A stretch of DNA of 64,000 nt from Candidatus Aenigmatarchaeota archaeon (GCA_043814985.1 JBDRJK010000019.1:88926-152925), one strand, 5' to 3'. Shown: positions 8,804-64,000, counted from the stretch's first letter. Made by a program: numbers and translations. The notes: generated from the letters alone by a model not told the origin.

Positions 8804-10375
8804 ATGTTCGGTTTTCTAAAAAAGAAGTTGAAAGAAGGAATAGATAAAATTTCTAAGAAAGTAAAGAAAAGGGAAGAGGAGATAATAGAGGAAGCTGTTG
8901 AGGAAATAAAAAAAGAGGAACAGATAGAAGAACCTAAAGAGGAATTGGTAAAGGAAGTCGAGGAAGAATTGGAGGAAGTTGTAGAAGAAGAGCCAGAAGT
9001 TGTTGAAGAACCTAAAGTTGAGGAAATCAAACCTGAAATTGAAGAAGTAGTTGAAGAAATCAAAGAAGAGATACCTGAAGTTATTGAAGAACCTGAGATT
9101 GAGAAAGAAACAATAGAAGAGGAAACCACTGTTGAGCCTGAGGTTAAAGAACCCACTGTTCTTGAAGAAGTTAAAGAAGAATTAAAGAAAGAGGAAATCA
9201 AACCGGAGATAGAGGAAGCCAAACCTGAAGTCAAAATAAAGGAAAAGCCTAAAAAGGAGAAGGGTTTTCTTGAGAAATTTAAGGAAAAGGTATCACATGT
9301 TGTTAAAGAAGAACCAGTTGAGCCTGAAATAAAGGAAGAACCCGAAAAGGAAATCAAGCCGGAAGTGAAGGAAGAGATTAAGCCTGAAATCAAAATAAAG
9401 AAAAAACCTAAAAAGAAAGTAAAGGAAATTCCAAAGGAAAAGCATGTCATTGAAAAACCGACGGAAGTAAAGCCTGTTGAAGAACTGAAAGAGGAAAAGA
9501 AGGCAGGCATTCTCAAGAGAATAAGGAGAAAGGTTACTGAGAAGAAGATAAGCGAGGAAGATGTAAAGGAAATGCTTGAGGACTTCAGGAAGGGTTTGAT
9601 TGAGTCTGATGTTGCTGTTGATGTTTCTGAAAAAATTGTAAATGATTTGAAGGGAAATCTTGTGGGCAAGTTCCTAAAGAGAAGCGAAGTCGAAAAAATT
9701 ATCAAGGAATCTTTCAGGAAATCTATTTTAGAGGTTTTGGATGTTGATGGCATTGACCTGATAGAAAAAGTGAAATCCAAAAAGCCGTTTATAATTATTT
9801 TCCTTGGTTTCAATGGTTCTGGCAAGACAACAACCATTGCAAGGATAGGTCACTTGTTAAAACAGAAGGGTTTCACTTGTGTCCTTGCTGCTGCGGACTC
9901 TTGGAGGGCAGCTGCCATTGAGCAACTGGAGGTTCATGGCAAGAATCTCGGCCTCACTGTTATCAAGCACAAGTACGGTGCAGACCCGGCTGCTGTTATT
10001 TTTGATGCAGTCAAGCACGCAAAGGCCAAGGACATTGATGTTGTCCTTGCTGACACTGCTGGCAGGAGCCATGCCAATACCAATCTTGTTGACGAGTTGA
10101 AGAAAATAGTAAGAGTGAATAAGCCTGACATGAAGGTTCTTGTTCTGGACGCATTGACAGGAAACGACATCTACGACCAGTGCAAAATTTTCAATGATGC
10201 TGTTGGTGTTGATGCCTTGGTTATAACAAAGGCAGACGTTTACGAGAAAGGCGGTGCAGCACTTTCAGCTTCCCACACCATAAACAAGCCAATATTATAT
10301 CTCGGAGTGGGTCAGAACTACGAGGACCTGGAGAAGTTTGACCCGGAAAAGATTGTAGAGAAACTTTTAGAGTAA
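8804..10375 (+). CDS. ftsY: SRP receptor FtsY with long acidic/Pro-rich N-terminal region
   Basis: MFGFLKKKLK start after GAGGTGA SD; GFNGSGKTTT, DTAGR, TKAD. Confidence 0.95.
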   Translation: MFGFLKKKLKEGIDKISKKVKKREEEIIEEAVEEIKKEEQIEEPKEELVKEVEEELEEVVEEEPEVVEEPKVEEIKPEIEEVVEEIKEEIPEVIEEPEIEKETIEEETTVEPEVKEPTVLEEVKEELKKEEIKPEIEEAKPEVKIKEKPKKEKGFLEKFKEKVSHVVKEEPVEPEIKEEPEKEIKPEVKEEIKPEIKIKKKPKKKVKEIPKEKHVIEKPTEVKPVEELKEEKKAGILKRIRRKVTEKKISEEDVKEMLEDFRKGLIESDVAVDVSEKIVNDLKGNLVGKFLKRSEVEKIIKESFRKSILEVLDVDGIDLIEKVKSKKPFIIIFLGFNGSGKTTTIARIGHLLKQKGFTCVLAAADSWRAAAIEQLEVHGKNLGLTVIKHKYGADPAAVIFDAVKHAKAKDIDVVLADTAGRSHANTNLVDELKKIVRVNKPDMKVLVLDALTGNDIYDQCKIFNDAVGVDALVITKADVYEKGGAALSASHTINKPILYLGVGQNYEDLEKFDPEKIVEKLLE

Positions 10376-14611: not shown

Positions 14612-15176
14612 TTTTTGATAAGACTTCTTCTACCTTTTTTTGTAAATCCCCTAGAGTTCCAGTGTTTTTTATTGTAAAATCAGCCATTGCTACTGGCCCT
14701 GCTTTATGAAGGTTCCCTATCTCAGAATAGTCCCTGCTTTGTGCCTGTTCTTGTGTGAATGGCCTGTGTCTCATTTCTTTATCATTCTTTGGATCGTATT
14801 TTCTAATTTCTAATCTCTTGTAGCGTGTTTCTGGCGAAGCATAAACAGCTATACAGATAAATGATTCACCGTACCTTTTCTTTAATTCCAGATACTCTTC
14901 CCAGCTGTACAAGCCATCAGCAATAACATCACCCTTTTCCAGTAATTTGTCGATTTTCGGTATGTTCAAAATTGCATATGCGGCCATGCCATGCTCCTTT
15001 CTTATTTTCTCCCTTATTGGCCTTTCATTCTCTTCTGTTGGCTCAAGACCTCTTTCTTTCACAATATCCAGTGTTATCTGCCCAAAACGTATGAATTGAA
15101 AGCCTTTCTTTACAAGCATGTCAGCTACTGTGCTCTTTCCAGAACCTGTCATTCCTACTAGTGCGATTACCTTCAT
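14601..15176 (-). CDS. P-loop kinase (dephospho-CoA kinase/NMP kinase-like)
   Basis: GMTGSGKS Walker A, DGLY, RYKRL, RD..E, ADFTIKN. Confidence 0.8.
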   Translation of the reverse strand: MKVIALVGMTGSGKSTVADMLVKKGFQFIRFGQITLDIVKERGLEPTEENERPIREKIRKEHGMAAYAILNIPKIDKLLEKGDVIADGLYSWEEYLELKKRYGESFICIAVYASPETRYKRLEIRKYDPKNDKEMRHRPFTQEQAQSRDYSEIGNLHKAGPVAMADFTIKNTGTLGDLQKKVEEVLSKITG

Positions 15177-15238
15177 CTAACCACTTAATATATAAACTTT
15201 TAATTAATAACTATTATAAATATTTTAGGTTGGTTTTA

Positions 15239-15517
15239 ATGGTTTCAAAATCGCACGGTCCAAGAAGGGGAACAAGGAAGAGGTTTAAGAATGAGAGGAA
15301 GGCCACTGTCAACCAGTTCATGAGGAAGTTTGAGCTGGGAGACAAGATAGTGATTGACATAGAGTCCTCTTCGTCCAAAGGCATGCCTTTCAGAAGGTTC
15401 CAGGGACGTACTGGCAAGGTTGTTGGACAGAGGGGAAGGGCCTACTTGATTGAGATAAAGGACGGCAACATGGTCAAGAAGATAGCTACGAACCCGGAGC
15501 ATATTAAAACCATATAG
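15239..15517 (+). CDS. rpl21e: 50S ribosomal protein L21e
   Basis: SHGPRRGTR, KGMPFRRFQGRTG, PEHIK. Confidence 0.95.
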   Translation: MVSKSHGPRRGTRKRFKNERKATVNQFMRKFELGDKIVIDIESSSSKGMPFRRFQGRTGKVVGQRGRAYLIEIKDGNMVKKIATNPEHIKTI

Positions 15518-15554
15518 TTATTTTAATAATTTCTTGGTAACTTATTCTATATAC

Positions 15555-15640
15555 GCGGAGGTCCGATAGTCTGGTCAATTCGGTAGGCTTGAGGAGCCTA
15601 TGGGTTAGTCCCTTCGCAGGTTCAAATCCTGCCCTCCGCA
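15555..15640 (+). tRNA. tRNA-Leu(GAG)
   Basis: Acceptor GCGGAGG/CCTCCGC+A; anticodon arm TAGGC-TTGAGGA-GCCTA; long variable arm; T-arm GCAGG-TTCAAAT-CCTGC. Confidence 0.93.
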
Positions 15641-15699
15641 CAACATATTTTCTCATGAAGGGCGGCACATTAATAAGCAAAATTTCATAAATTGTTAGT

Positions 15700-16182
15700 A
15701 TGAAGAAAAGATATTTTTTGATTATTGCAGTTTTGATTTCAATTATAGTATCATTATACTTCTATATATCATATTTTTACATCGCGGAAGTACCAAATGA
15801 GTATATAGCTTGTGGTTGTGGTTGCTGTGGTGGTATGGAACCTCAAGAAGAATGTATCTACCATTCAAAAGGTGATGATATGAGGTCAATTATTATAAAC
15901 GATAGGTTAATGTCCAGAGACCCTATATGCCCTACGGTTGGGTGTAGTTTTCCTATAAAATATGTCTATTGTGACTGCACTCAAGACAATTCCGGTTCAT
16001 GTGATAGAACTTGCGAGTCTGATGATGATTGTCAATTATCATGTGGTTGTGACTGTATCTCTAAAAACGAAGTTTGTAGATTTGCAGGTACTTTTTGCGA
16101 AGAACCGGAAGAAAATCCAAGCCTTTATCAGAAATGCATATGTATCAATAACAGATGTGAACTTAAATGGGAAGAGGGTTAA
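15700..16182 (+). CDS. Membrane-anchored cysteine-rich surface protein
   Basis: N-terminal TM helix; CGCGCCG, CESDDDC..CGCDC, C.CINNRC. Confidence 0.75.
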   Translation: MKKRYFLIIAVLISIIVSLYFYISYFYIAEVPNEYIACGCGCCGGMEPQEECIYHSKGDDMRSIIINDRLMSRDPICPTVGCSFPIKYVYCDCTQDNSGSCDRTCESDDDCQLSCGCDCISKNEVCRFAGTFCEEPEENPSLYQKCICINNRCELKWEEG

Positions 16183-16207
16183 GGGAGAAACGTAGTTTCT
16201 CCTTAGG

Positions 16208-16232
16208 AGGTTCAAATCCTGCTCTCCGCACA
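16208..16232 (+). repeat. Copy 1 of tRNA-Leu 3' end (att-like direct repeat), preceded by a hairpin at 16180-16205
   Basis: AGGTTCAAATCCTGCTCTCCGCACA vs 15618-15642 AGGTTCAAATCCTGCCCTCCGCACA (24/25). Confidence 0.9.
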
Positions 16233-16281
16233 TCTCATGTTCTTCACCGCTTGATGTGAGGGCAGCAATAAGAATAAATTT

Positions 16282-17481
16282 CTAAATTTTTGTTGGAGAA
16301 GCTTCTCTCAAATAATTTTTATTGATTTTTATTCTGGTTCCATTGTGGTAGTATTTTTTCTTTGATAATCTCTCCCATCTTACCTCTTTCCCGAGTATGC
16401 TTAAAGTTCTTGCTACAACCAAACAAACAAGGGACAGCGCCGAGTCAAAAGTCAAATAAAGAGGGATGAACGGAATAAGACGCCCCTCTTTCATTTTAAA
16501 CAAACCTATGGAGATAGCTAAGAACGAGATTAGAAACGGAATAATAGAAAAAATACGCAATTGCAGGCTGCTCGCAAAAATAAAGGCTATTAAAGAAAAC
16601 AAACTTATGGTCTGTATAGCCACTGGATTGAGGGATATCACCGTTGAGGTAATTTTTTTCTTTCTAAATACGAATCTCGTGGGCATGCTGTACCATCTCA
16701 ACCTCTGTATAAAAAAGTGATAGACACTCTCGACCTCCTCTTGCCATACACTTGCACCAGTAACGGCCATCTTCCAGCCCCTGTTTTTCAGATTGCTGGC
16801 CATTTCTTCATCTTCTGCGAGCGTCTTTCCATGACCACCCACATCTTTCCACGCTTTCCTCTTGAACGAATAATTAGCGCCGCAAATGTACTGTTCAACG
16901 CCCATCCTCGCTCTTCCCCAATACGCAACATTTAACATCCACACGTCCTCTATGGCCCTCATCCTGGTCAGCAAGTTCTTGTACCAGTTACCGCAGAATA
17001 CCAATCCCAAGGATGCGCCAATCCTTTTGTCACTCATCAGAGTGCGGACGTGTTTCATCAGCCAGTCTCTTTCACATATTCCGTCAGGATCTGTGAGGGC
17101 GATGATGTCCCCCTTTGCCACATCTCTTATGGCATCGTCAAGGACCTGGCCCTTTCGGTTGTATCCCTTTTTGCTTCTATAATGTTTTATCAGCCCCAAT
17201 TTCTCGTAGTGCTTGCATATTTTCAGAGTCTTGCCAGTAGACCCGTTGTCATAAACTATTATCTCGTACTTGTCCTTTGGATAGTTCAATTTAAGGAAGT
17301 TTTCGATCTTTCTTTTTATTACATTTCCTGCCCAGTCGTCCCTGTATGCATATGTCATGACGCTGACCTTTGGCAAGACCTTTGGTTCCTTTGGCTGATA
17401 AGGTCTTTTCGCAATAAAGGCATAAAGAAGGTTGAGTAAGGATGACAGTATGAACAAAGATGATAGTATTTCTGTAAGCAT
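16282..17481 (-). CDS. Glycosyltransferase family 2 with TM helices
   Basis: DNGS, TDPD (DxD), LAED and QRLRW motifs. Confidence 0.88.
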   Translation of the reverse strand: MLTEILSSLFILSSLLNLLYAFIAKRPYQPKEPKVLPKVSVMTYAYRDDWAGNVIKRKIENFLKLNYPKDKYEIIVYDNGSTGKTLKICKHYEKLGLIKHYRSKKGYNRKGQVLDDAIRDVAKGDIIALTDPDGICERDWLMKHVRTLMSDKRIGASLGLVFCGNWYKNLLTRMRAIEDVWMLNVAYWGRARMGVEQYICGANYSFKRKAWKDVGGHGKTLAEDEEMASNLKNRGWKMAVTGASVWQEEVESVYHFFIQRLRWYSMPTRFVFRKKKITSTVISLNPVAIQTISLFSLIAFIFASSLQLRIFSIIPFLISFLAISIGLFKMKEGRLIPFIPLYLTFDSALSLVCLVVARTLSILGKEVRWERLSKKKYYHNGTRIKINKNYLREASPTKI

Positions 17482-17531
17482 ACTTTATTATTGGTGGCGT
17501 TTAAATAAGCTTTTTTATAAATTCTGATCTA

Positions 17532-17555
17532 GTTCAAATCCGGCCCTCCGCACCA
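17532..17555 (+). repeat. Copy 2 of tRNA-Leu 3' end (att-like direct repeat), ending in ACCA
   Basis: GTTCAAATCCGGCCCTCCGCAC vs 15620-15641 GTTCAAATCCTGCCCTCCGCAC (21/22). Confidence 0.85.
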
Positions 17556-17587
17556 TTCTTATTAATCAAGAATTCTAAATTGATAAT

Positions 17588-18427
17588 ATGAAACTAATAA
17601 TCTTAGGTTCTGGTGGAGCATGGTCTTGTCCCATACCCACTTGCTTTTGCGAAAAATGTAGAGAAGCAAGAGACAAGGGAGTGCCTTATTCCAGAGGAGG
17701 GCCTTCCTTATTCATAGAAGAGGAGAGCATACTGTTTGATACCCCGGAGGAAATTACTCAGCAATTAAACAGGGAGAAAGTAAAGAGATTGAGGCACGTA
17801 TTCTACACTCACTGGCATCCGGACCACACCCAAGGCATGAGGATATTTGAGAATATTGCAAGACGTTTGAAGCACCCGCAAGAATTACCGTTTGATGCGG
17901 AAATGATTGATGTCTATATACCAGTTGAGGTCTATGATGATTTCAAAAAGTATTTGTCGAATTTTTTCTATTATGAAGAAAATGGATGGATAAGGGTTCA
18001 TAAGATAGAAGACAGGAAAGAAATAAAGATAGGAAGGTTGTCCATAATTCCTCTAAGCTTTAGGGTTCCGGGAAAATCCCGTTATGGGTATCTAATAAAG
18101 GAAAGTAAAAAGAAGGTATTCTACGGGCCTTGTAGCATATGGAGCATGACAACTGACGAGAGCTTTGACAGTACTGATTTAATGCTTATAGAATTTGGTT
18201 GGTTAGGGAACACAGAAGAGAAAAGAAAGAATGATCCCAAGACTTCATCTATTCACTATCACATAAGCTTTGAAGAGGATATAGAACTTATCAGAAAACT
18301 GAAACCTAAACGGACTATACTTACACATATCGACTATACGGATTTTGAAAATGCTGAGAGGTTGGTAAAACCATTCAAAAAATTGAATATAGATATAGCA
18401 TATGATGGCATGAAAATAGAGGTTTGA
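17588..18427 (+). CDS. Metallo-beta-lactamase fold hydrolase (PhnP-like)
   Basis: LGSGG..P...C.CEKC, THWHPDH, LTH, AYDGM. Confidence 0.88.
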   Translation: MKLIILGSGGAWSCPIPTCFCEKCREARDKGVPYSRGGPSLFIEEESILFDTPEEITQQLNREKVKRLRHVFYTHWHPDHTQGMRIFENIARRLKHPQELPFDAEMIDVYIPVEVYDDFKKYLSNFFYYEENGWIRVHKIEDRKEIKIGRLSIIPLSFRVPGKSRYGYLIKESKKKVFYGPCSIWSMTTDESFDSTDLMLIEFGWLGNTEEKRKNDPKTSSIHYHISFEEDIELIRKLKPKRTILTHIDYTDFENAERLVKPFKKLNIDIAYDGMKIEV

Positions 18428-18476
18428 TTAGAGTTCCAACATCCGCATTTTTATTCTAAAAATTCCAACTAACCAT

Positions 18477-19157
18477 ATGGTAGACTGGTTCGGTTCGTTT
18501 CCCGTGGCTCCACTGCTTTTCGCGTTTCTGATTCCAATAGTTTACTCCTTGGTTAAAAGAAAGGAACTCAAATCAATCCTATTAATGACAGCATGCTCAG
18601 TAGGGGTCGTTGCCTTCTATCCAATTACTAACTTTCTGAGCAGCTCCATCCCGTTGTTTGGTTATTTAATAGGAAAAGTCATTCTTTTTGTCTTGTTCCC
18701 AATAGGGACAATATTCTTCATAGAGCGCTGGAGCATCAAAGACATCTTCACGAACTTGGGTGTCAGAAAGGAGAACCTAAAGAAAAGCATTCTCTATGGT
18801 TTATTAGCTGCAGTGGTTACAATAGCCATCACCACCTTGATTATTACTAGTAGCCAGATTGATTCTGTCTATAGCACGGTCATGTTTTTCGAGTCCTTCA
18901 CAGAGGAGTTCTTCTTCAGGGGCTTTTTATTGCTGTATTTAATGAAAAAGACCAGTCCCAAGGTAGCATATGCAACATCCATACTCGGCTTCATCCTAAT
19001 ACACCCCCAGAACTTTGACAATCTATTTATAATCTCAACAATGGTGCAGGGAGTTCTGATGACTGTCATTGCCGACAAGACCAAAAACATAGTGGGTCCT
19101 TGGGTTGGTCACGGCCTTAATAGGGTTGTTCCCAGTCTTCTGAGAATCCTTTTCTAG
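18477..19157 (+). CDS. CPBP/CAAX (Abi) intramembrane protease family
   Basis: EEFFFRG, F...H, H..N motifs; multi-TM. Confidence 0.85.
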   Translation: MVDWFGSFPVAPLLFAFLIPIVYSLVKRKELKSILLMTACSVGVVAFYPITNFLSSSIPLFGYLIGKVILFVLFPIGTIFFIERWSIKDIFTNLGVRKENLKKSILYGLLAAVVTIAITTLIITSSQIDSVYSTVMFFESFTEEFFFRGFLLLYLMKKTSPKVAYATSILGFILIHPQNFDNLFIISTMVQGVLMTVIADKTKNIVGPWVGHGLNRVVPSLLRILF

Positions 19158-19204
19158 ATAATCTATATTTAAAGATTTCTTCCTTACTTTAATCTAGTGA
19201 TAAG

Positions 19205-19471
19205 ATGGGAACTCCAAACTTTGAAATTAAAAGGGAAGAACATAAAAAGTGGTTAGAAGAACAAGGGATACCATTTGGAAGATGTGACTATGCTCCTAAA
19301 GAGGGGAATCTGGGTACTAACAAGTGTAGCATATACTCTCATGTTGATCCTGAATTCCAAGTTTTCACATGCCTTTCTGCATGTGGTAATGAAGTTAATG
19401 GTTTTGAGAACAACCTGAAAGTAACGCCATGTGAACATAAAAGATTGAAAGACCAATATGAAAAGAAATAA
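19205..19471 (+). CDS. Small hypothetical Cys-containing protein
   Basis: 88-aa ORF with GTGA SD-like site upstream. Confidence 0.55.
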   Translation: MGTPNFEIKREEHKKWLEEQGIPFGRCDYAPKEGNLGTNKCSIYSHVDPEFQVFTCLSACGNEVNGFENNLKVTPCEHKRLKDQYEKK

Positions 19472-19474
19472 TAA

Positions 19475-19894
19475 TCAGAATGATTTCATATATTCTCTTA
19501 TCTTATTAACCGAAATCTTGACTTCTTCAATTATTTTGTCATTCTTCATGTTCTCTTTGGCATAATTCATGATAGGTCTTACTGACTCTATCTTCCTGCC
19601 GAATCTCTCCATCCATCCGTGCCTAGGAAATATCCAGAGGTGAAATTTATGCTCGGAATCCTCGTTCTGAAAGAGGTAGACATCCTTTATTTTTAGTACT
19701 TCCTTCATTCCCCTTCTGAGATTTATTAGCAGTTTTATGAATTCCTTTGACTCTTCTTCATTGAGGTCAGCAACAGAATTTATCTTCCTTTTGGATGATA
19801 TTATGAAGAACCCTGGTATGGGAATCTCCCAGTCTTGGCCAACTTCGAAATGGTTAGTGGTTATTATTGTCTCATCAGGGAATAATTTTTCCAT
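19475..19894 (-). CDS. HIT-like hydrolase
   Basis: PIPGF.II..KR, HKFHLWIFPR. Confidence 0.8.
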   Translation of the reverse strand: MEKLFPDETIITTNHFEVGQDWEIPIPGFFIISSKRKINSVADLNEEESKEFIKLLINLRRGMKEVLKIKDVYLFQNEDSEHKFHLWIFPRHGWMERFGRKIESVRPIMNYAKENMKNDKIIEEVKISVNKIREYMKSF

Positions 19895-19967
19895 ATTAAG
19901 AAATTATGAAAATTGGTATTTATTAGAATATTATAATTTTTTAAACCAGCATTTCTAAATCTATTAT

Positions 19968-20483
19968 ATGAAAAAGACAAAGACTTACGAGAACTTTCCT
20001 TTATGGATAGTCGCCTTAACTAACCTTTTCTCCCTATCAATCTATCTGATAGGATTATATATTTTCTCAAGATTTGGAATACTATTCGCTGTATTCTTCG
20101 CTCTTTACATTATCTGGACTGAATTCCGCTTGGTTACAAAATCCTGCAGGAATTGTTATTATTATGGTAAATTCTGTGCATTCGGAAGGGGCAAGTGCTG
20201 TTCTCTGTTATTCAAGAAAGGCAGCCCCAAGAGGTTTGTGAAAAGAAAGGTAACAATGAAAGACCTAATCCCAGATTTCCTATTAACTATACTTCCAATG
20301 ATAGCAGGAGCCATACTTCTAATATACGACTTTTCATGGTGCATTCTTGCATTAATAGCCTTTTTGATTGTTTTCGGATTCTTTGGAAATGCAGTGATCA
20401 GGAGCTCTTTCGCCTGTAAATATTGCAAGCAAAGGAAAATAGGATGCCCTGCAGAAAAGTTATTCAAGAAAAAGAACAAATAA
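19968..20483 (+). CDS. Hypothetical membrane protein with two CxxC...C motifs
   Basis: 4 TM segments; CRNCYYYGKFC and CKYCKQRKIGCP. Confidence 0.7.
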   Translation: MKKTKTYENFPLWIVALTNLFSLSIYLIGLYIFSRFGILFAVFFALYIIWTEFRLVTKSCRNCYYYGKFCAFGRGKCCSLLFKKGSPKRFVKRKVTMKDLIPDFLLTILPMIAGAILLIYDFSWCILALIAFLIVFGFFGNAVIRSSFACKYCKQRKIGCPAEKLFKKKNK

Positions 20484-20516
20484 GCTTTTTAACCTTGAAT
20501 TACAATTAAAATCAAT

Positions 20517-21221
20517 ATGAAAGGCATGATTGTACCTGACCATCTGGGCGTTATTCTTGACGGCAATAGGAGATGGGCTATCGAAAATAAACTGAAGCCT
20601 TGGAAAGGCCACGCTTTCGGGGCTGAGAAATTTGAAAAATTTTTGGAATGGTGTGTGGAATTTGAAATACCTCAAATTTCCGCATATGTCCTATCAACAG
20701 AGAACCTTAACAGGTCAAAAAGAGAAGTTGATGCTCTGCTAGATTTATTCCAAAATGAGCTGGAAAGAGTCGAGAATAATAAGATAAGCCTTCTGGACAA
20801 GTATGAGATAAGAATGAAATTTATAGGAGATTTGACCAGACTGCCTTTGGGACTCCGTAGAGTAATGGGAAGAATAATGGACAAGACAGAAAAATATAAC
20901 CAAAGAGTCTTCAACATTATGGTTGCTTATGGTGGGAAGTTCGAGCTGACAAACGCTGTCAAGAAAATAGCTAAAAAGGCCTTGGAAACAGGCATAGTAA
21001 CTGTGACCGAGAAGACAATAAAGGACAACCTTATGGTAAAAGATGATATTGACCTTCTTATTAGGACTGGTGGGGAGAAGAGGCTTTCCAACTTTATGCC
21101 AATCCAGGCCGCCTATGCAGAGATGATAGTTCTAAGAAAATTGTGGCCAGACATCAGGAAAAGCGATCTGAAAAGATGTATTATGGAATACTCTAGAAGG
21201 CAGAGAAGATTCGGCCACTAG
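20517..21221 (+). CDS. uppS: cis-prenyltransferase (polyprenyl diphosphate synthase)
   Basis: HLGVILDGNRRWA, STENLNR, IRTGGEKRLSNF, RRFG. Confidence 0.95.
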   Translation: MKGMIVPDHLGVILDGNRRWAIENKLKPWKGHAFGAEKFEKFLEWCVEFEIPQISAYVLSTENLNRSKREVDALLDLFQNELERVENNKISLLDKYEIRMKFIGDLTRLPLGLRRVMGRIMDKTEKYNQRVFNIMVAYGGKFELTNAVKKIAKKALETGIVTVTEKTIKDNLMVKDDIDLLIRTGGEKRLSNFMPIQAAYAEMIVLRKLWPDIRKSDLKRCIMEYSRRQRRFGH

Positions 21222-22858
21222 ACCTTTTCTAGTATCTTTCTTACTCTTTCTCTTCCTATTATCAGAATGAACGGAGCTAGTCTGGGACCCCAAGACTTTC
21301 CTAGCAAAGACAGATATATTGCCTTGAAGAAATCCTTTGAATCGATTCCTACTTCCTTTTTTATCTCGAAGAACCTTCCATACAATTCCTTTTCTGTTAA
21401 TTCTTTTTTCAAGTCATTAGCCAAAATTTTTAATGCTTGCCTTTGTTTATCATCCAACTTTTCCTTTGGGGGATTTTCCAAAATCTTTATCTTGTAGCTT
21501 TCGCCTCCGTATCTTTCTGCCCAGTTCTTGGCCATCACGAGCATTTCCTTTATCTTGTTCTCGTCCTCTACTTTCTCCAGATGTCCTGTTGACTTGAACA
21601 GCTCGATTGCCTTCTCAAGCATCTTCTCCTTTGGAACCAATTGCGAAACTAAAGCAGCATAATCAAAAGGAATCTGGGCCGGCATCTTGTCGGGAACCTC
21701 GACCTCGCTCATAACATATAGCCTCTTTGAGAACTCCTCTTTGTCGTCCTCTTCCATGCCAAAGTAAATTCTCTGCAGCTTGTAGAACTCGTCAACATAC
21801 TTCGGGATGTACTCATAAGAAAAATCTCTGACTCTGTTCGGTCTCTTCATGAATAGCAGTCTCAGTATTTGCGGCGGAGCAAACAAGGGCCACTCCCATG
21901 TTGCCACCACATTACCCACGGATGCCGACATCTTCTTGCCAGATACAGTCAGGTACTCATAAGGTTGAATGTAGTTCTTTCCAGGATAAGGCTCTGCCCA
22001 ACCAAATATTTTTTCACATATCTCACCAGCGCTCCAGAAGGAACCCCCTGGCATGAAGTGCTCCTTGCCGCCAGCCTCGAAAATGACCTTCCAGTGTGCC
22101 CATAACATTCCCCACTCTACTCTCCACAACAATTTTCCGTTCTTCATGTTGCTTTCTCCCTTGAAGCCGCAGCCTTTCAGCTTTGTGTAAGCATCCACAC
22201 CGAAAGGTTTGAACTGGTAGTCCTCGCAGGAATATTTCACAACACCCCCATCCATACTAGTCACCTTTGTTGTCATTAGTTTTCTACAGTTCTCGCATAC
22301 AGGCTTCCATGGAGTCCAGTCTTTGGCTAATGGGACCCTTCTCTTCTTGTTGAGAATCTCTTTGATTTCATCAAGGTTTTCAAACACAAGCTTGATCCAC
22401 TTGGAGAAAGTTCCTGCTCTATATTCCTTGGATGTTGAGAAGTATTCAGGGCTTGTCCCGAATTTCTTCAGGCTTTCCACAAATTTCGTGCAGAAATGCT
22501 CGCTGTAAGTCTTGTGGCAACCCTCAGGGCATGGTATGTCAGCAACAGGCATTCCCAGATACTTGTCAAAGCTTTTGGGTATCCCTGCAGGAACCTTTCT
22601 CAAGGCGTCCATGTCCTCCCCTATCCACAGGAACCTGGGTTCACGACCCTTTTCCTTCAGTGACCTTACAACAGCATCGTTCCTTATGACGTCGGACGCG
22701 TTGCCTATGTGAGGAACTCCGGAAATTGAAGTAGAACTTTTTACAGCAAAATTTTTGGGCAGCTCGTATTTCTTTTTTATGTAATTGTAACCTTTCCTGT
22801 TCAAAATCATGTCTGCTATCTCATCTGACCAAAATATTTCTCCCATAATAATCTCCAA
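21218..22858 (-). CDS. lysS: Lysine--tRNA ligase, class I
   Basis: SGVPHIGN, KMSASVGN, GPRLAPF. Confidence 0.95.
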   Translation of the reverse strand: MEIIMGEIFWSDEIADMILNRKGYNYIKKKYELPKNFAVKSSTSISGVPHIGNASDVIRNDAVVRSLKEKGREPRFLWIGEDMDALRKVPAGIPKSFDKYLGMPVADIPCPEGCHKTYSEHFCTKFVESLKKFGTSPEYFSTSKEYRAGTFSKWIKLVFENLDEIKEILNKKRRVPLAKDWTPWKPVCENCRKLMTTKVTSMDGGVVKYSCEDYQFKPFGVDAYTKLKGCGFKGESNMKNGKLLWRVEWGMLWAHWKVIFEAGGKEHFMPGGSFWSAGEICEKIFGWAEPYPGKNYIQPYEYLTVSGKKMSASVGNVVATWEWPLFAPPQILRLLFMKRPNRVRDFSYEYIPKYVDEFYKLQRIYFGMEEDDKEEFSKRLYVMSEVEVPDKMPAQIPFDYAALVSQLVPKEKMLEKAIELFKSTGHLEKVEDENKIKEMLVMAKNWAERYGGESYKIKILENPPKEKLDDKQRQALKILANDLKKELTEKELYGRFFEIKKEVGIDSKDFFKAIYLSLLGKSWGPRLAPFILIIGRERVRKILEKV

Positions 22859-41275: not shown

Positions 41276-42633
41276 ACCACATTAATGTCCTTTTCAAACC
41301 ATTCCCTCAGGAATCTTCTAAAGTCTTCTGGCATTTTCTTCACCTCTTTCAGAAAATCCCCACCGCCAGCTATTACTGCTTTCCTTATGTTGGGCGCAAT
41401 CTTGCTGGGTAGCCCTCTTTCTCTCAAATCTTTCTCAGACTTTTTGAGCAGGTCTTTTAGAAAATGCAAGACCGTTGTGAACTTTCTCTCGACTTCCACA
41501 ACCCACTTCTCATTTTCAATGAAAACCTCGTTCTGTTTGTAGTGTTTTAGGAACTCTTCCGCGTGACTGCTGTAAACATCAGGCCCTATGTTCTTTGTGA
41601 TTTTTGGTATCTGCCATGCCTTCATTTCAAAGACCATTACGCACTTTTTGTCGCAGTAAAAGTCGCTCCTTAGAACATTGAAACCGTTTTGTGTTAGTAT
41701 TTTATCTATTGCTCCTTTGCCTCTTTTCATCTGAGGATAGAGCACATCCTCCACTGTCTTTGGCCTTTCAAAGCTTATCGAGTACCACCTTGTCCCTCTT
41801 TTCTTAATCTCCTTTGCCACTTCTTCCAAAGAATATGGTTTTGTTTCTGGTGGGAAGAAGAATTCCCTTTTCGGGTTGTCAACAAACCTCTTGCAGGCAT
41901 TGATGAATATGTAGAACTTTTCCACCGATACAGCTGCTCCAACGTTCCTGTTCTTGTCAACAGGGTCAACAACAATAAAGGGACTCTTGAATTTTTTCGC
42001 CTTTTCCTTATTGGAGTTTTTGAAAACTATGATATATCTTGCTCTCCACTTGGATGCATCTTTGGCAAGCTTCATGAAGCTCCCATATTTTATTATCAGT
42101 AATTCACATAGGTAACCCGAGAAGCCCAAAGTCTTAACGTCAGCTCCATAGCACTTGTTGGCTATGCAGAACTGCTTTAATAATCTAACTTCGTCAGGTT
42201 TCTTCAGGTTTTTCTCAACAAACTTCACATGATGCGGAGTCCTGTCAACTGATGACTTGATTTTTTCAGGATCCTTTATGGAGTAAGCAGGAACAATGTC
42301 CACCTGGTACTTTCCTATCTGTGCTTTGAGATAAGGATGCTCTGCGAAGGCTATCTCGTGCTTGCCTTTCAGTTCTTTAACAATTTTTTTGGCCAGAATC
42401 ATGCCATTTTTCTCAAGTTCCTTTTTGGATATCTTAGGATCGTACAACAAGAATAAGTCTACCTCGTTCTTTTCCGATATCCAGGTGTCTTTTGCAACTG
42501 ACCCGCACACCAACGGCTTCACATCCTTTTCCAAATTTCCAGTTAATTTGGTCAACTTTGCAATAAAGTCTTCCATTTCCTTATACTCTTTTTTGCTCGG
42601 TTTTAGCTCATTTAGAACGGATTTTAGATCCAT
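41272..42633 (-). CDS. cca: CCA-adding enzyme (archaeal class I)
   Basis: GSVAKDTW...EVDLF, AEHPY, DRTPHH, GFSGYLCELL, DPVD..RNV. Confidence 0.95.
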   Translation of the reverse strand: MDLKSVLNELKPSKKEYKEMEDFIAKLTKLTGNLEKDVKPLVCGSVAKDTWISEKNEVDLFLLYDPKISKKELEKNGMILAKKIVKELKGKHEIAFAEHPYLKAQIGKYQVDIVPAYSIKDPEKIKSSVDRTPHHVKFVEKNLKKPDEVRLLKQFCIANKCYGADVKTLGFSGYLCELLIIKYGSFMKLAKDASKWRARYIIVFKNSNKEKAKKFKSPFIVVDPVDKNRNVGAAVSVEKFYIFINACKRFVDNPKREFFFPPETKPYSLEEVAKEIKKRGTRWYSISFERPKTVEDVLYPQMKRGKGAIDKILTQNGFNVLRSDFYCDKKCVMVFEMKAWQIPKITKNIGPDVYSSHAEEFLKHYKQNEVFIENEKWVVEVERKFTTVLHFLKDLLKKSEKDLRERGLPSKIAPNIRKAVIAGGGDFLKEVKKMPEDFRRFLREWFEKDINVV

Positions 42634-62615: not shown

Positions 62616-63254
62616 TTAAAATTTCTTTGCCCTTTTCCAGAGCTCGTTGAAATAGGTTTTGAAAATGTTTATCATGGCAGGGCTGTTGGTCCAAACAAAG
62701 TCAGACTCTAGGGGATTGTCTATCCTCATGCAGACTTCCTTGTTGTCAACAATACCTATTCTCGGGTGGACATTCATTGGCAGAATTCTTATGTTTGCTC
62801 CTTGTTTTTTATACCACATGGCCCTTGCTCTTTTGGATTCATCCATTTCAGAAGTTCCTATTATCCTTATCTTGACTCCCTTTCTCTTCAGGACCTTTGA
62901 ATATGAATTATCAAGAATAGAATTCCTGGAGAATTTGGAAGTTGTTGCCAACCCCATCTTCTTAGTCCTTCCAATCATCTCAGCAGCCTTTTCTAGAAAA
63001 GCCTTCCTGCCTCTTCCAGTCCATACTCCTAGCTTCTCCCCCCTTTTCTCAAAAGGCTTTAACTGGCTTATGATTAGGTTTGTTTTGTTATTCAGCTTAT
63101 CAATCTCAGTTCTCTTGCCCTCGATTATTTTTCTGAACGCTTGTTTTGGCTTGACTGCCCTGAACCTTTGAGGCTTTGAGTTCCAGCTTTCAGCCAGGGA
63201 TTTCAGCATAAGGTTCTTCATTACATTGTAGATTTTTGATTGTGGTATATGATT
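62616..63254 (-). pseudogene. TrmB-family regulator lacking the start of its HTH (5'-truncated at the integrase junction)
   Basis: Homology begins at IPQSKIY..L..K.L....KP.RF.AV.P; C-terminal IVDNKE..F...W PLD-like domain; no upstream HTH helices. Confidence 0.7.
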
Positions 63255-63264
63255 GGATTTGAAC
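63255..63264 (-). mobile_element. Candidate att core GTTCAAATCC at the trmB/integrase junction
   Basis: Plus-strand GGATTTGAAC; identical to the tRNA T-loop core in the tRNA-Leu repeats. Confidence 0.45.
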
Positions 63265-63310
63265 GGCTTTTCCACGAGTATATAAAAGCACGACAAGGCA
63301 GGTGATTAGT

Positions 63311-64000
63311 ATGGTAAGGAATTCAAACGAAACCCTGAGCAGGTACATAGACTCGCTGCTAACAAAGCCGAGACTCAGGAAGGGTACAAGAGGCGAGCTT
63401 CAGGACAGGGAGGCCACCAAGGAGCAGCTGGATGTGTTGAGGAGGTACTACAAATACCTCAAGTTCGAGAAGAAGGTCAAGATAACGACCATATCGAGCT
63501 ACCTCTCTACCATCAGGTTCTTCATAGTTGAGACTGGGAAGAGGTTCGAGGACATAACCAAGGAGGACATACAGAACTATTTCGAGCACACAGACAGCAA
63601 TTCAGAGTACACGAAGCAGAGGGTCAGGAACGCCTTGAAGCAGTTCTTCAAGTGGCTGTATAACACCCCGAAGGACGAGTACCCAGATGTTGTGGATTGG
63701 ATAACTGTCGGCAAGTTCAGAAAGTACCTGAGCCCCGATGATCTGCTGACCGAGGACGAGGTTCTTAGAATATTGAACGCCTGCGATAACCCTCGGGACA
63801 GGGCGTTGATATCCTTGTTATTCGACTCGGCAATGAGGGTCACTGAGGTCTCAAACCTTGACCTCAAGGACTTGAAGGTCAACGACAACCATGCCATAGT
63901 CTTTATCAGGCAGGCAAAGACCTCTTCAGGCACGAGGGAGGTTCCGATAGTGAACGCAGTCCCAGCTTTGAAGAATTGGCTGAGCCACCATCCATACAAG
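63311..64000 (+). CDS. Tyrosine recombinase/integrase (runs off window; absent from ORF track)
   Basis: GGTGA SD then MVRNSNETL...; SAM-like N domain (LKQFFKWL); LLTEDEV..RDRALISLLFDSAMRVTE (catalytic R); AKT; visibly higher GC than host. Confidence 0.92.
   Translation, partial: MVRNSNETLSRYIDSLLTKPRLRKGTRGELQDREATKEQLDVLRRYYKYLKFEKKVKITTISSYLSTIRFFIVETGKRFEDITKEDIQNYFEHTDSNSEYTKQRVRNALKQFFKWLYNTPKDEYPDVVDWITVGKFRKYLSPDDLLTEDEVLRILNACDNPRDRALISLLFDSAMRVTEVSNLDLKDLKVNDNHAIVFIRQAKTSSGTREVPIVNAVPALKNWLSHHPYK

Follow-up and report, generated by a model that had tools for sequence, protein, structure and literature searches.

The window analysed here is a stretch of 64,000 nucleotides from a groundwater archaeon belonging to Candidatus Aenigmatarchaeota (GCA_043814985.1), and corresponds to contig C19:88926-152925 of its genome, G000 (808 kb, 21 contigs, 91% complete, ~40% G+C). 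Between the gene for ribosomal protein L21e and a UPP synthase-like gene (UPPS) it holds a variable block that starts at a tRNA-Leu(GAG) gene, the first part of which is divided by short copies of the 3' end (the tail) of this tRNA. We report the anatomy of the units bounded by such tails, how they vary among relatives, and two cases of insertion polymorphism inside the genus (G001, G002 and G003 are congeners of G000), both of which are bounded at the T-loop. The tRNA-Leu(GAG)-to-UPPS stretch is best explained as an insertion hot spot for small cassettes, added serially.

The tRNA-Leu(GAG) gene (15555..15641, plus strand) is intact; it was predicted by ARAGORN and scores 49.6 bits with the Rfam tRNA model (threshold 29 bits), while over 15000-21500 Rfam at E<=1 gave this tRNA alone plus one spurious antisense match. 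The repeated piece comprises 24 nt (15619-15642) and runs from G53 of the T-arm through one base beyond the discriminator. Pattern searches located orphan copy 1 (16209..16232, plus strand; 23/24, one mismatch) and orphan copy 2 (17531..17554, plus strand; three mismatches), the latter having a 3' part of the CCGGCCCTCCGCACC type and forming the left junction of a unit with an MBL-fold gene. The 24-nt tail had zero matches in 100 dinucleotide shuffles, and in a repeat search the pair of tRNA tail and copy 1 extends to 43 nt at 84% identity. Copy 2 shows 22-23 nt of identity to the 3' ends of an intron-bearing tRNA-Leu on G000:C15 and of the G002 tRNA-Leu(GAG). The right junction of the MBL unit is a decayed orphan copy 3 with an old trailer (18433..18458, plus strand), recognised by comparison with G001: the orthologous glycosyltransferase gene there is followed by an orphan fragment, whose 3' part and trailer are matched by positions 18440-18458 (19/19). 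Orphan copies decay, as scars would; copy 3 and the G001 fragment are examples. Direct repeats of the tRNA 3' part thus flank inserted DNA next to an intact target tRNA, in the manner of attL/attR sites. The tRNA-Leu with orphan 3'-end repeats that was described in the original prediction is therefore confirmed, and the third repeat, which it had called weak, is genuine though decayed. Its statement that similarity falls with distance from the tRNA is numerically correct but does not describe a decay series, since copy 2 matches other tRNA-Leu tails.

A scan of G000 with the 22-nt tails of its 33 predicted tRNAs, allowing up to 3 mismatches, mostly returned other tRNA genes. Three matches fell outside the ARAGORN predictions, and two of these are, as read by eye, intron-bearing tRNAs. 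The third is an orphan-like T-arm-plus-acceptor piece (C13:~10126-10153) situated ~20 nt behind an intron-bearing tRNA with no open reading frame (ORF) between them. Apart from these three, extra tail copies in G000 are limited to the two at this locus, and the search for similar arrays at other tRNAs accordingly yielded, besides tRNA genes, these two copies and the C13 piece. The tRNA-Leu on C15 (~41300-41545, minus strand) is of UAA type by comparison with G001 and has at least two introns; ARAGORN missed it even with introns allowed.

Three genes lie between the tRNA and copy 3, and the ORF list and family scan agree with the names that they had been given. Cargo 1 (15700..16182, plus strand) encodes a 160-amino-acid Cys-rich protein with an N-terminal hydrophobic segment; it has no family in Pfam, NCBIfam or PADLOC and no homologue in the relatives' loci examined or elsewhere in G000. 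The second gene is a reversed GT2 glycosyltransferase (16282..17481, minus strand; PF00535, PF13641), orthologues of which are retained at 73-88% amino-acid identity in G001, G002, G003 and G017, and in G001 no tail fragment separates it from the tRNA. The sequence comparison marks GT2 as an old resident of the hot spot and not as a free one-gene cassette. The third gene (17588..18427, plus strand) encodes an MBL-fold hydrolase that is PhnP/RNase Z-like (PF12706, E 1e-20; the NCBIfam matches are all far under cut-off). Seven related loci were found for the MBL protein (38-53% identity), none with a tRNA or flanking repeats. The nearest of these relatives (49-53% identity) are in bacterial metagenome-assembled genomes (MAGs), one of them labelled Candidatus Berkelbacteria, followed by Woesearchaeota (42-43%), which suggests transfer of the MBL gene between ultra-small bacteria and archaea.

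Units, end modules and complementary arms

Ten tail-bounded units were recognised in seven arrays from six genomes. They range from 0.31 to 1.32 kb and have one ORF each, of 59-399 amino acids. Three are in the window (590, 1322 and about 900 nt); the others are found in G002:C1 (870 nt), G019:C42 (555 nt), G013:C1 (601 nt), G017:C41 (543 nt), G017:C59 (about 460 and 455 nt) and, at a tRNA-Gly(CCC), in G020:C214 (313 nt). Among the single-gene units proposed earlier, the GT2 "unit" is a retained resident gene. The cargo includes an MBL hydrolase, a CAAX protease, a HIT-like protein, methyltransferases, HEPN and many proteins without family; it shows no bias towards surface or glycosylation functions, and the idea of a platform for such genes is not sustained.

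The ends of the units recur with unrelated cargo. At the right end of cassette 1, a module that we refer to as motif a (16170..16205, plus strand) is composed of GGAAGAGGGTTAAG, a perfect 8-bp hairpin (16184-16191 / 16195-16202) and TTA. This motif is 97-100% identical at the cassette ends of G002:C1 at tRNA-Leu(UAA) and of G020:C214 at tRNA-Gly(CCC), so that one end module is shared by cassettes at three tRNAs, Leu(GAG), Leu(UAA) and Gly(CCC). A variant of it is common to G013:C1 and G019:C42, and G017:C41 has a different right-end hairpin (CTTCTT...AAGAAG); each right-end hairpin sits directly against the T-loop of the copy behind it. In G000:C21, G013 and G019 the 5' half of motif a is also present, unaccompanied by a tail copy. 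The survey of hairpin modules was a BLAST search with the window as reference, which is less complete than a pattern survey would be.

Left ends generally combine T-rich sequence with a TATA-like box, which precedes the ATG by roughly 22-30 nt. In cassette 1 the left-end module (15642..15699, plus strand), as compared with the left ends of other cassettes, consists of the T-rich stretch, a degenerate arm, GAAGGGCGGCA (15657-15667), that is partly complementary to the tRNA tail, and the TATA-like TTAATAAG (15670-15677) about 25 nt before the ATG. Module b (16233..16289, plus strand) has a CATGTTCTTCAC loop, an arm, GAGGGCAGC (16258-16266), whose complement CTGCCCTC is part of the tRNA tail, and AATAAG...TTCTAAATT; in the window no forward ORF follows it, and elsewhere it is present after the real tRNA-Leu(GAG) in G013 and after orphan copies in G013:C1 and G017. 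Module c (TTATTAAT...AAGAATTCTAAATTGATAAT; 17555..17587, plus strand) precedes the MBL start codon; together with the same first codons it is also found at G000:C21 (~825-850) and in contigs of relatives from three runs. The TATA-like boxes may act as promoters, one per cassette. As a general promoter word TTCTAAATT was rejected, as it has 25 exact matches in the genome against about 20 expected.

On C21 of G000 there is, moreover, a cassette-like unit (~805-1075) with a possible decayed tail, module c and the same first codons as the MBL unit, a 59-amino-acid membrane ORF and the 5' half of motif a. It is located 45 nt upstream of tRNA-His, near the 16S rRNA gene.

In 9 distinct left-end modules we recognised an arm that is the complement of the tail's T-stem-3'/acceptor part, and this arm changes with the tRNA: the pairings are CTGCCCTC / GAGGGCAG for Leu(GAG), CCGGCCCTCC / GGAGGGaCGG for the Leu(UAA) cassette and ATCCCGGTC / GACCGGGAT for Gly(CCC). 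This co-variation rests on single folds and sequence reading. Folded as single-stranded DNA, 4/6 arm regions gave z values of -2.0 to -3.5, the window copies being weaker (-1.3 for module b and -0.6 for cassette 1), and RNAalifold on the 9 left-end modules, which align poorly, returned no consensus structure. Tails with native flank behind them have no arm, and an inverted arm behind every tRNA gene was rejected, with an exact arm of at least 7 nt behind 0/33 predicted G000 tRNAs. The arm may belong to a recombination site that folds, or it may guide the choice of target.

Variation between relatives and T-loop-bounded insertions

The order Pus10 - dCMP deaminase - kinase - L21e - tRNA-Leu(GAG) - variable region - UPPS - LysRS is kept across the family. 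The distance from tRNA to UPPS is smallest in G006 (90 bp) and largest in the window (4.9 kb); between these lie G013, G020 and G025 (about 530-560 bp), G005 (1.2 kb), G018 and G019 (2.1 kb) and G001 (3.6 kb). The locus is split over contigs in G002 and G003 and rearranged in G017. A fixed order of units in the relatives, which would have spoken against mobility, was not seen, since the content of the gap differs between genomes. Neither the window cargo (GT2 excepted) nor seven cargo ORFs of relatives had a homologue in another genome's loci. Among 55 ORFs from the variable regions and flanks of 11 relatives we found methyltransferases, HEPN, NUDIX, HAD, TspO, TauE, polyprenyl synthetase etc., and many ORFs without family, but zero recombinase or transposase families. 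The 7 ORFs between tRNA and UPPS in the window likewise gave 0/7 matches to recombinase families and 0/7 in PADLOC, which agrees with the predicted lack of an integrase inside the units.

Gain and loss of units, bounded at tRNA-tail copies, is observed within the genus in two cases. The first concerns tRNA-Leu(UAA): in alignment A1, exactly 870 bases that are missing from G000:C15 and G001:C1 stand in G002:C1 between G53 and T54. The insert consists of a left-end module, one 248-amino-acid methyltransferase-like ORF and the motif a hairpin; it is followed by a 21-nt tail repeat and then by the same downstream flank as in G000 (the G001 flank is different). The second case is the MBL unit, present in G000 and absent from G001. 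In G001 a single orphan fragment follows GT2, ...TCTAGTTCAAATCTTGCCATCCGCA and then TTTTTATTCTA. In G000 the 5' part of a fragment of this type (TCTAGTTCAAATC) is found at copy 2 and its 3' part with the trailer (CATCCGCATTTTTATTCTA) behind the MBL gene at copy 3. The new upstream copy has a CCGGCCCTCCGCACC-type tail unlike the old one. Because the upstream copy has a different tail type, it points to a tail borne by the element and joined in the T-loop; a target-site duplication would leave two copies of the old tail. The MBL unit lies inside an older orphan copy and has therefore accreted there. The accretion that had been proposed thus holds in that new units enter older orphan copies and share end modules despite unrelated cargo, and fails for GT2, which is not a cassette.

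Taken together, we regard it as somewhat more probable than otherwise that these are non-autonomous cassettes accreted by T-loop crossover, with the recombinase supplied in trans. A typical cassette would comprise a tRNA copy from the T-loop to the 3' end, a left-end module, one ORF and a hairpin right end abutting the next T-loop. Crossover in or next to the 7-nt T-loop (TTCAAAT) would rebuild the tRNA with the cassette's tail and displace the old tail downstream as an orphan, which would still be usable as a target and would then decay. Cassettes would move as units and each would be expressed from its own promoter, while the crossover would be carried out by a tyrosine-type recombinase acting in trans, either an Xer-like zinc-ribbon paralogue or an enzyme from a virus, a plasmid or a host cell.

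The assembly of the locus was checked in assembled contigs from four DNA runs. Logan contigs from runs of two studies span the tRNA end, the Cys-rich gene and copy 1, as well as copy 2 into the MBL gene, with 0 differences; the source sample may be among the confirming runs. Related strains have contigs that depart from the window sequence exactly at 15640-15643 and at 17553. A joint 15641->17568 (13 letters between, one side of 26) was rejected as an excision product, as it represents a relative's cassette with the MBL/C21 left end. In run X1 one contig has a joint 16267->16216, which steps back by 52 nt over copy 1 and the trailer behind it; either a strain with a small tandem duplication or an error of assembly could be the cause.

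Recombinases and alternative explanations

G000 has three PF00589 genes, all outside the tRNA-UPPS block and the nearest about 45 kb away. They encode Xer-like tyrosine recombinase paralogues (27-34% mutual identity) with a C-terminal zinc-ribbon-like tail, and the scores of all three are far short of the cut-offs for XerA and for integron integrases (TIGR02249, 23-46 bits, cut-off 265; NF011946, 31 bits, cut-off 435). The one at 63302, at the window end, is cut by the contig end; the other two are at G000:C15:7516-8007 and C19:53987-54466. Two of the three (window 62616-64000 and G000:C19:52700-55300) adjoin a TrmB-like regulator gene, and G017 has four Xer-like zinc-ribbon genes. The original prediction had invoked an integrase acting in trans and had pointed to the integrase gene at this end of the window for an assay. 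Such a role was not substantiated: the gene is one of three paralogues, and G001, G002, G003 and G013 have no PF00589 match.

Several results weigh against cassettes moved by a recombinase in trans. No recombinase is linked to the cassettes. The four genomes just named, which are 81-90% complete (G001 being 89% complete in 7 contigs), lack a PF00589 match at E<=1 despite having cassettes or orphan tails, and no serine recombinase was detected in the 5 genomes searched. In G017, where one integrase neighbourhood was examined, the integrase on C2 was rejected as an island member, since the DNA between tRNA tails there encodes FttA, a proteasome subunit, ProRS and MetRS. The contigs of the four runs gave no unit-precise circle or empty-site joint, rare ones being invisible in contigs. 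Not all units are one-gene units, as G003 has a 5.4-kb, 7-ORF block that lacks an integrase and is bounded by the tRNA and a 13-nt tail piece. Finally, the identity blocks are uneven, beginning at T54 in some cases and in the T-stem in others, and covering 13 nt only in G003 and G017, and there may be more than one mechanism or enzyme. The trans-acting enzyme may come from transient elements or host cells, some cassettes may be fossils, or short-homology recombination may be at work.

Some of these results are also those expected of eroded tandem islands, i.e. integrase-bearing viruses or plasmids whittled down to single genes, with anchor-to-anchor homologous recombination swapping blocks. 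For archaeal elements, the parts of PMC8371274 consulted document both insertion in tandem and loss of the integrase, and the larger block in G003, the heterogeneous identity blocks and the genomes without any integrase match would all suit this scenario. Yet the insertions are T-loop-bounded at one-gene size, ten units measure 0.3-1.3 kb, end modules are common to unrelated cargo at three different tRNAs, and no integrase remnant is present among the 55 ORFs scanned. We therefore rate erosion of larger islands as rather unlikely.

A second alternative dispenses with a dedicated integrase: DNA from relatives would integrate Campbell-style by host homologous or microhomology recombination over 10-25 nt of tail identity. 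It would account for cassettes and fragments in genomes without tyrosine or serine recombinase matches and for identity blocks whose length differs from case to case. It is harder to reconcile with the MBL case, in which the cassette tail and the target share just about 10-13 nt, with junctions that cluster at the T-loop and are not spread over the tail, and with the conserved hairpin and tail-complementary arm, which suggest a recognised site. To us this route seems improbable.

With respect to known systems, archaeal elements of the SSV/pNOB8 type that encode tyrosine integrases resemble the present array in that the 3' part of the tRNA is copied as direct repeats, the tRNA itself is restored, insertions stand in tandem and cargo stays behind in the chromosome. 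Reportedly, tRNA-gene-targeted integrative elements and gene capture in archaea were described by She et al. in 2001/2004, and T-loop crossover is said to be covered by the sublocation rule of Williams (2002). The units studied here differ from such elements in their size (0.3-1.3 kb), in having one ORF and shared short end modules, and in their lack of an integrase or remnant (0/7 window ORFs, 0/55 relatives' ORFs); several of the host genomes, moreover, are without any tyrosine recombinase match. tRNA-targeted integration, tandem integration and gene capture in archaea are treated in the consulted parts of PMC8371274. The Streptococcus cis-mobilizable elements (CIMEs) and the accretion of integrative conjugative and integrative mobilizable elements (ICEs and IMEs), as presented in the portions of PMC5704250 and PMC7563491 that we used, and the tandem ssrA islands of Dehalococcoides (excerpts of PMC3146451) are similar in that non-autonomous DNA between att copies is piled up at one RNA gene through repeated site-specific insertion. 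As in CIMEs, our units lie between att-like copies and are without recombination or transfer genes among the families found. Those bacterial systems, however, are multi-kb in size and depend on a related autonomous element that has its own integrase. Here we found no such partner: none of the loci examined showed an integrase-bearing element with these tails at its ends.

The likeness to integrons is closer in architecture than in components. Integrons and clusters of attC sites lacking integron integrases (CALINs) are, in the sections consulted of Ghaly et al. 2022 (PMC9668308), made up mostly of one-gene cassettes with unrelated cargo and hairpin-forming sites, often with no integrase nearby, and integrons or attC clusters occur in archaeal MAGs including Aenigmatarchaeota; the junctions at our locus also form hairpins. 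An integron or CALIN of the classical kind, built from IntI and attC cassettes, is nevertheless barely credible here given that the recombinases score 23-46 bits against cut-offs of 265 and 435, that no RYYYAAC or GTTRRRY core sites (attC core motifs) were seen at the junctions when read by eye, and that the repeated core is a tRNA tail that changes with the tRNA. In addition, there is no IntI, and the cassettes seem to carry their own TATA-like promoter, as opposed to the platform promoter of integrons.

T-loop introns and flanking features

Motif a also occurs, in inverted orientation, inside the T-loops of tRNA genes of the sister families f4 and f7 (G030, G038 and G040). All loci read gave this arrangement (6/6; G030:C5, G040:C1/C3/C4 and two on G038:C1), with 88-97% identity over 30-36 nt; the count covers these six loci, three further G038 matches being left out. 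The module is flanked by intact exon halves, and CCA is encoded in 5/6. The intron is ~55 nt long, has a GGAGAAAC-NNN-GTTTCTCC hairpin and an ACCCTC/GAGGGT hairpin, and interrupts the T-loop at about position 58/59 in several different tRNA genes. One intron-bearing f4/f7 tRNA-Leu folds into a structure in which a helix prolongs the T-stem and the intron forms two hairpins. Within the window, motif a is not located in a tRNA and so does not constitute a non-canonical intron.

These introns raise the question of a role at the RNA level, in which orphan tails would be alternative 3' exons, split-tRNA halves or processing signals and a cassette a giant T-loop intron. The presence beside copy 1 of a module that is a T-loop intron elsewhere (6/6 loci), and the fold with a T-stem-extending helix, are in line with this notion. 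On the other hand the upstream tRNA is complete by itself, orphan copies decay, motif a has the orientation opposite to that in the intron, a complementary leader for the 5' half is missing, and T-runs are found between the tRNA end and the arm; we consider such a role highly improbable. A split tRNA was rejected for the same locus, with an intact tRNA present, orphan copies that decay and no complementary leader.

Intron transposition is known in Thermoproteales. The motif a introns fit, without proving it, the seeding of tRNA introns and fragments by mobile elements. Mobile-element integration as a source of tRNA introns and scattered fragments was put forward, in a model for Caldiarchaeum, by Sugahara et al. 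2012 (PMC3293823, consulted in part). Common to that model, as far as its consulted part goes, and our data is one mobile module that is present both beside tRNA fragments and as a tRNA intron. The published case is a 1.8-kb recombinase-encoding element, while here we have a 36-nt hairpin end of cassettes that is inverted in the T-loops of sister families.

We raise, tentatively and as less likely than its narrower basis, a DPANN system of tRNA-T-loop-anchored cassette exchange that would be integron-like but unrelated to integrons, with one-gene cassettes that each have a promoter, a site made up of hairpin, tail and arm, an arm that defines or guides the target, a recombinase from outside the cassette and an inverted end module that seeded T-loop introns, so linking the origin of non-canonical tRNA introns to the traffic in cassettes. 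In such a system each tRNA species, be it Leu(GAG), Leu(UAA) or Gly(CCC), would have its own version of the arm, and the recombinase would in some lineages come from outside the genome. Apart from this proposal, we class the present finding with tRNA-targeted site-specific integration, as a form set apart by miniature non-autonomous cassettes with shared structured ends. Ultra-small symbiotic archaea have genomes of about 0.8 Mb with few mobile-element genes and accessory genes that differ between close relatives. If the proposal is true, a minimal tRNA-anchored cassette system would explain the trade in single genes among such genomes, give a second, independent example of integron logic and connect mobile DNA with the origin of tRNA introns and fragments in a concrete way that can be tested. 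For strain-resolved metagenomics, moreover, orphan tails of tRNAs and insertions bounded at the T-loop are easy markers.

We found no published integrase-less one-gene cassettes at tRNA T-loops in DPANN in a literature search limited to main texts, and the consulted portion of a study on horizontal transfer in Aenigmarchaeota (PMC8407114) makes no mention of such cassettes. A metagenome scan with a 27-nt stretch of the window returned 0 loci and one with an 18-nt stretch 41 loci, 4 of which carry a tRNA-Leu tail; one further locus (L084) has a module-b-like context without tail, and the rest are chance-like.

The remainder of the variable block (18477..20483) contains a CAAX/Rce1-like protease, an 88-amino-acid ORF, a HIT-like ORF on the minus strand and a 171-amino-acid membrane ORF, as given by the ORF list and family scan. 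No tRNA copies are recognisable in this part, and its genes have no counterparts at this place in relatives. The right anchor, UPPS (20517..21221, plus strand), owes its name to a reading of the translation only; a UPPS is found at the same place in relatives of genera g1 and g11 (69-85% amino-acid identity) and in G005, G006, G025 and G017:C13 (36-44%). The left anchor is the L21e gene (15161..15517, plus strand; PF01157, E 3e-26), whose synteny with the tRNA extends to relatives. In G001 and G003 the interval between the two is occupied by a dCTP-deaminase-like gene, 330-354 amino acids long (L017 7513-8577; L021 2681-3670). Since G000 does not carry this gene, the side upstream of the tRNA is also variable.

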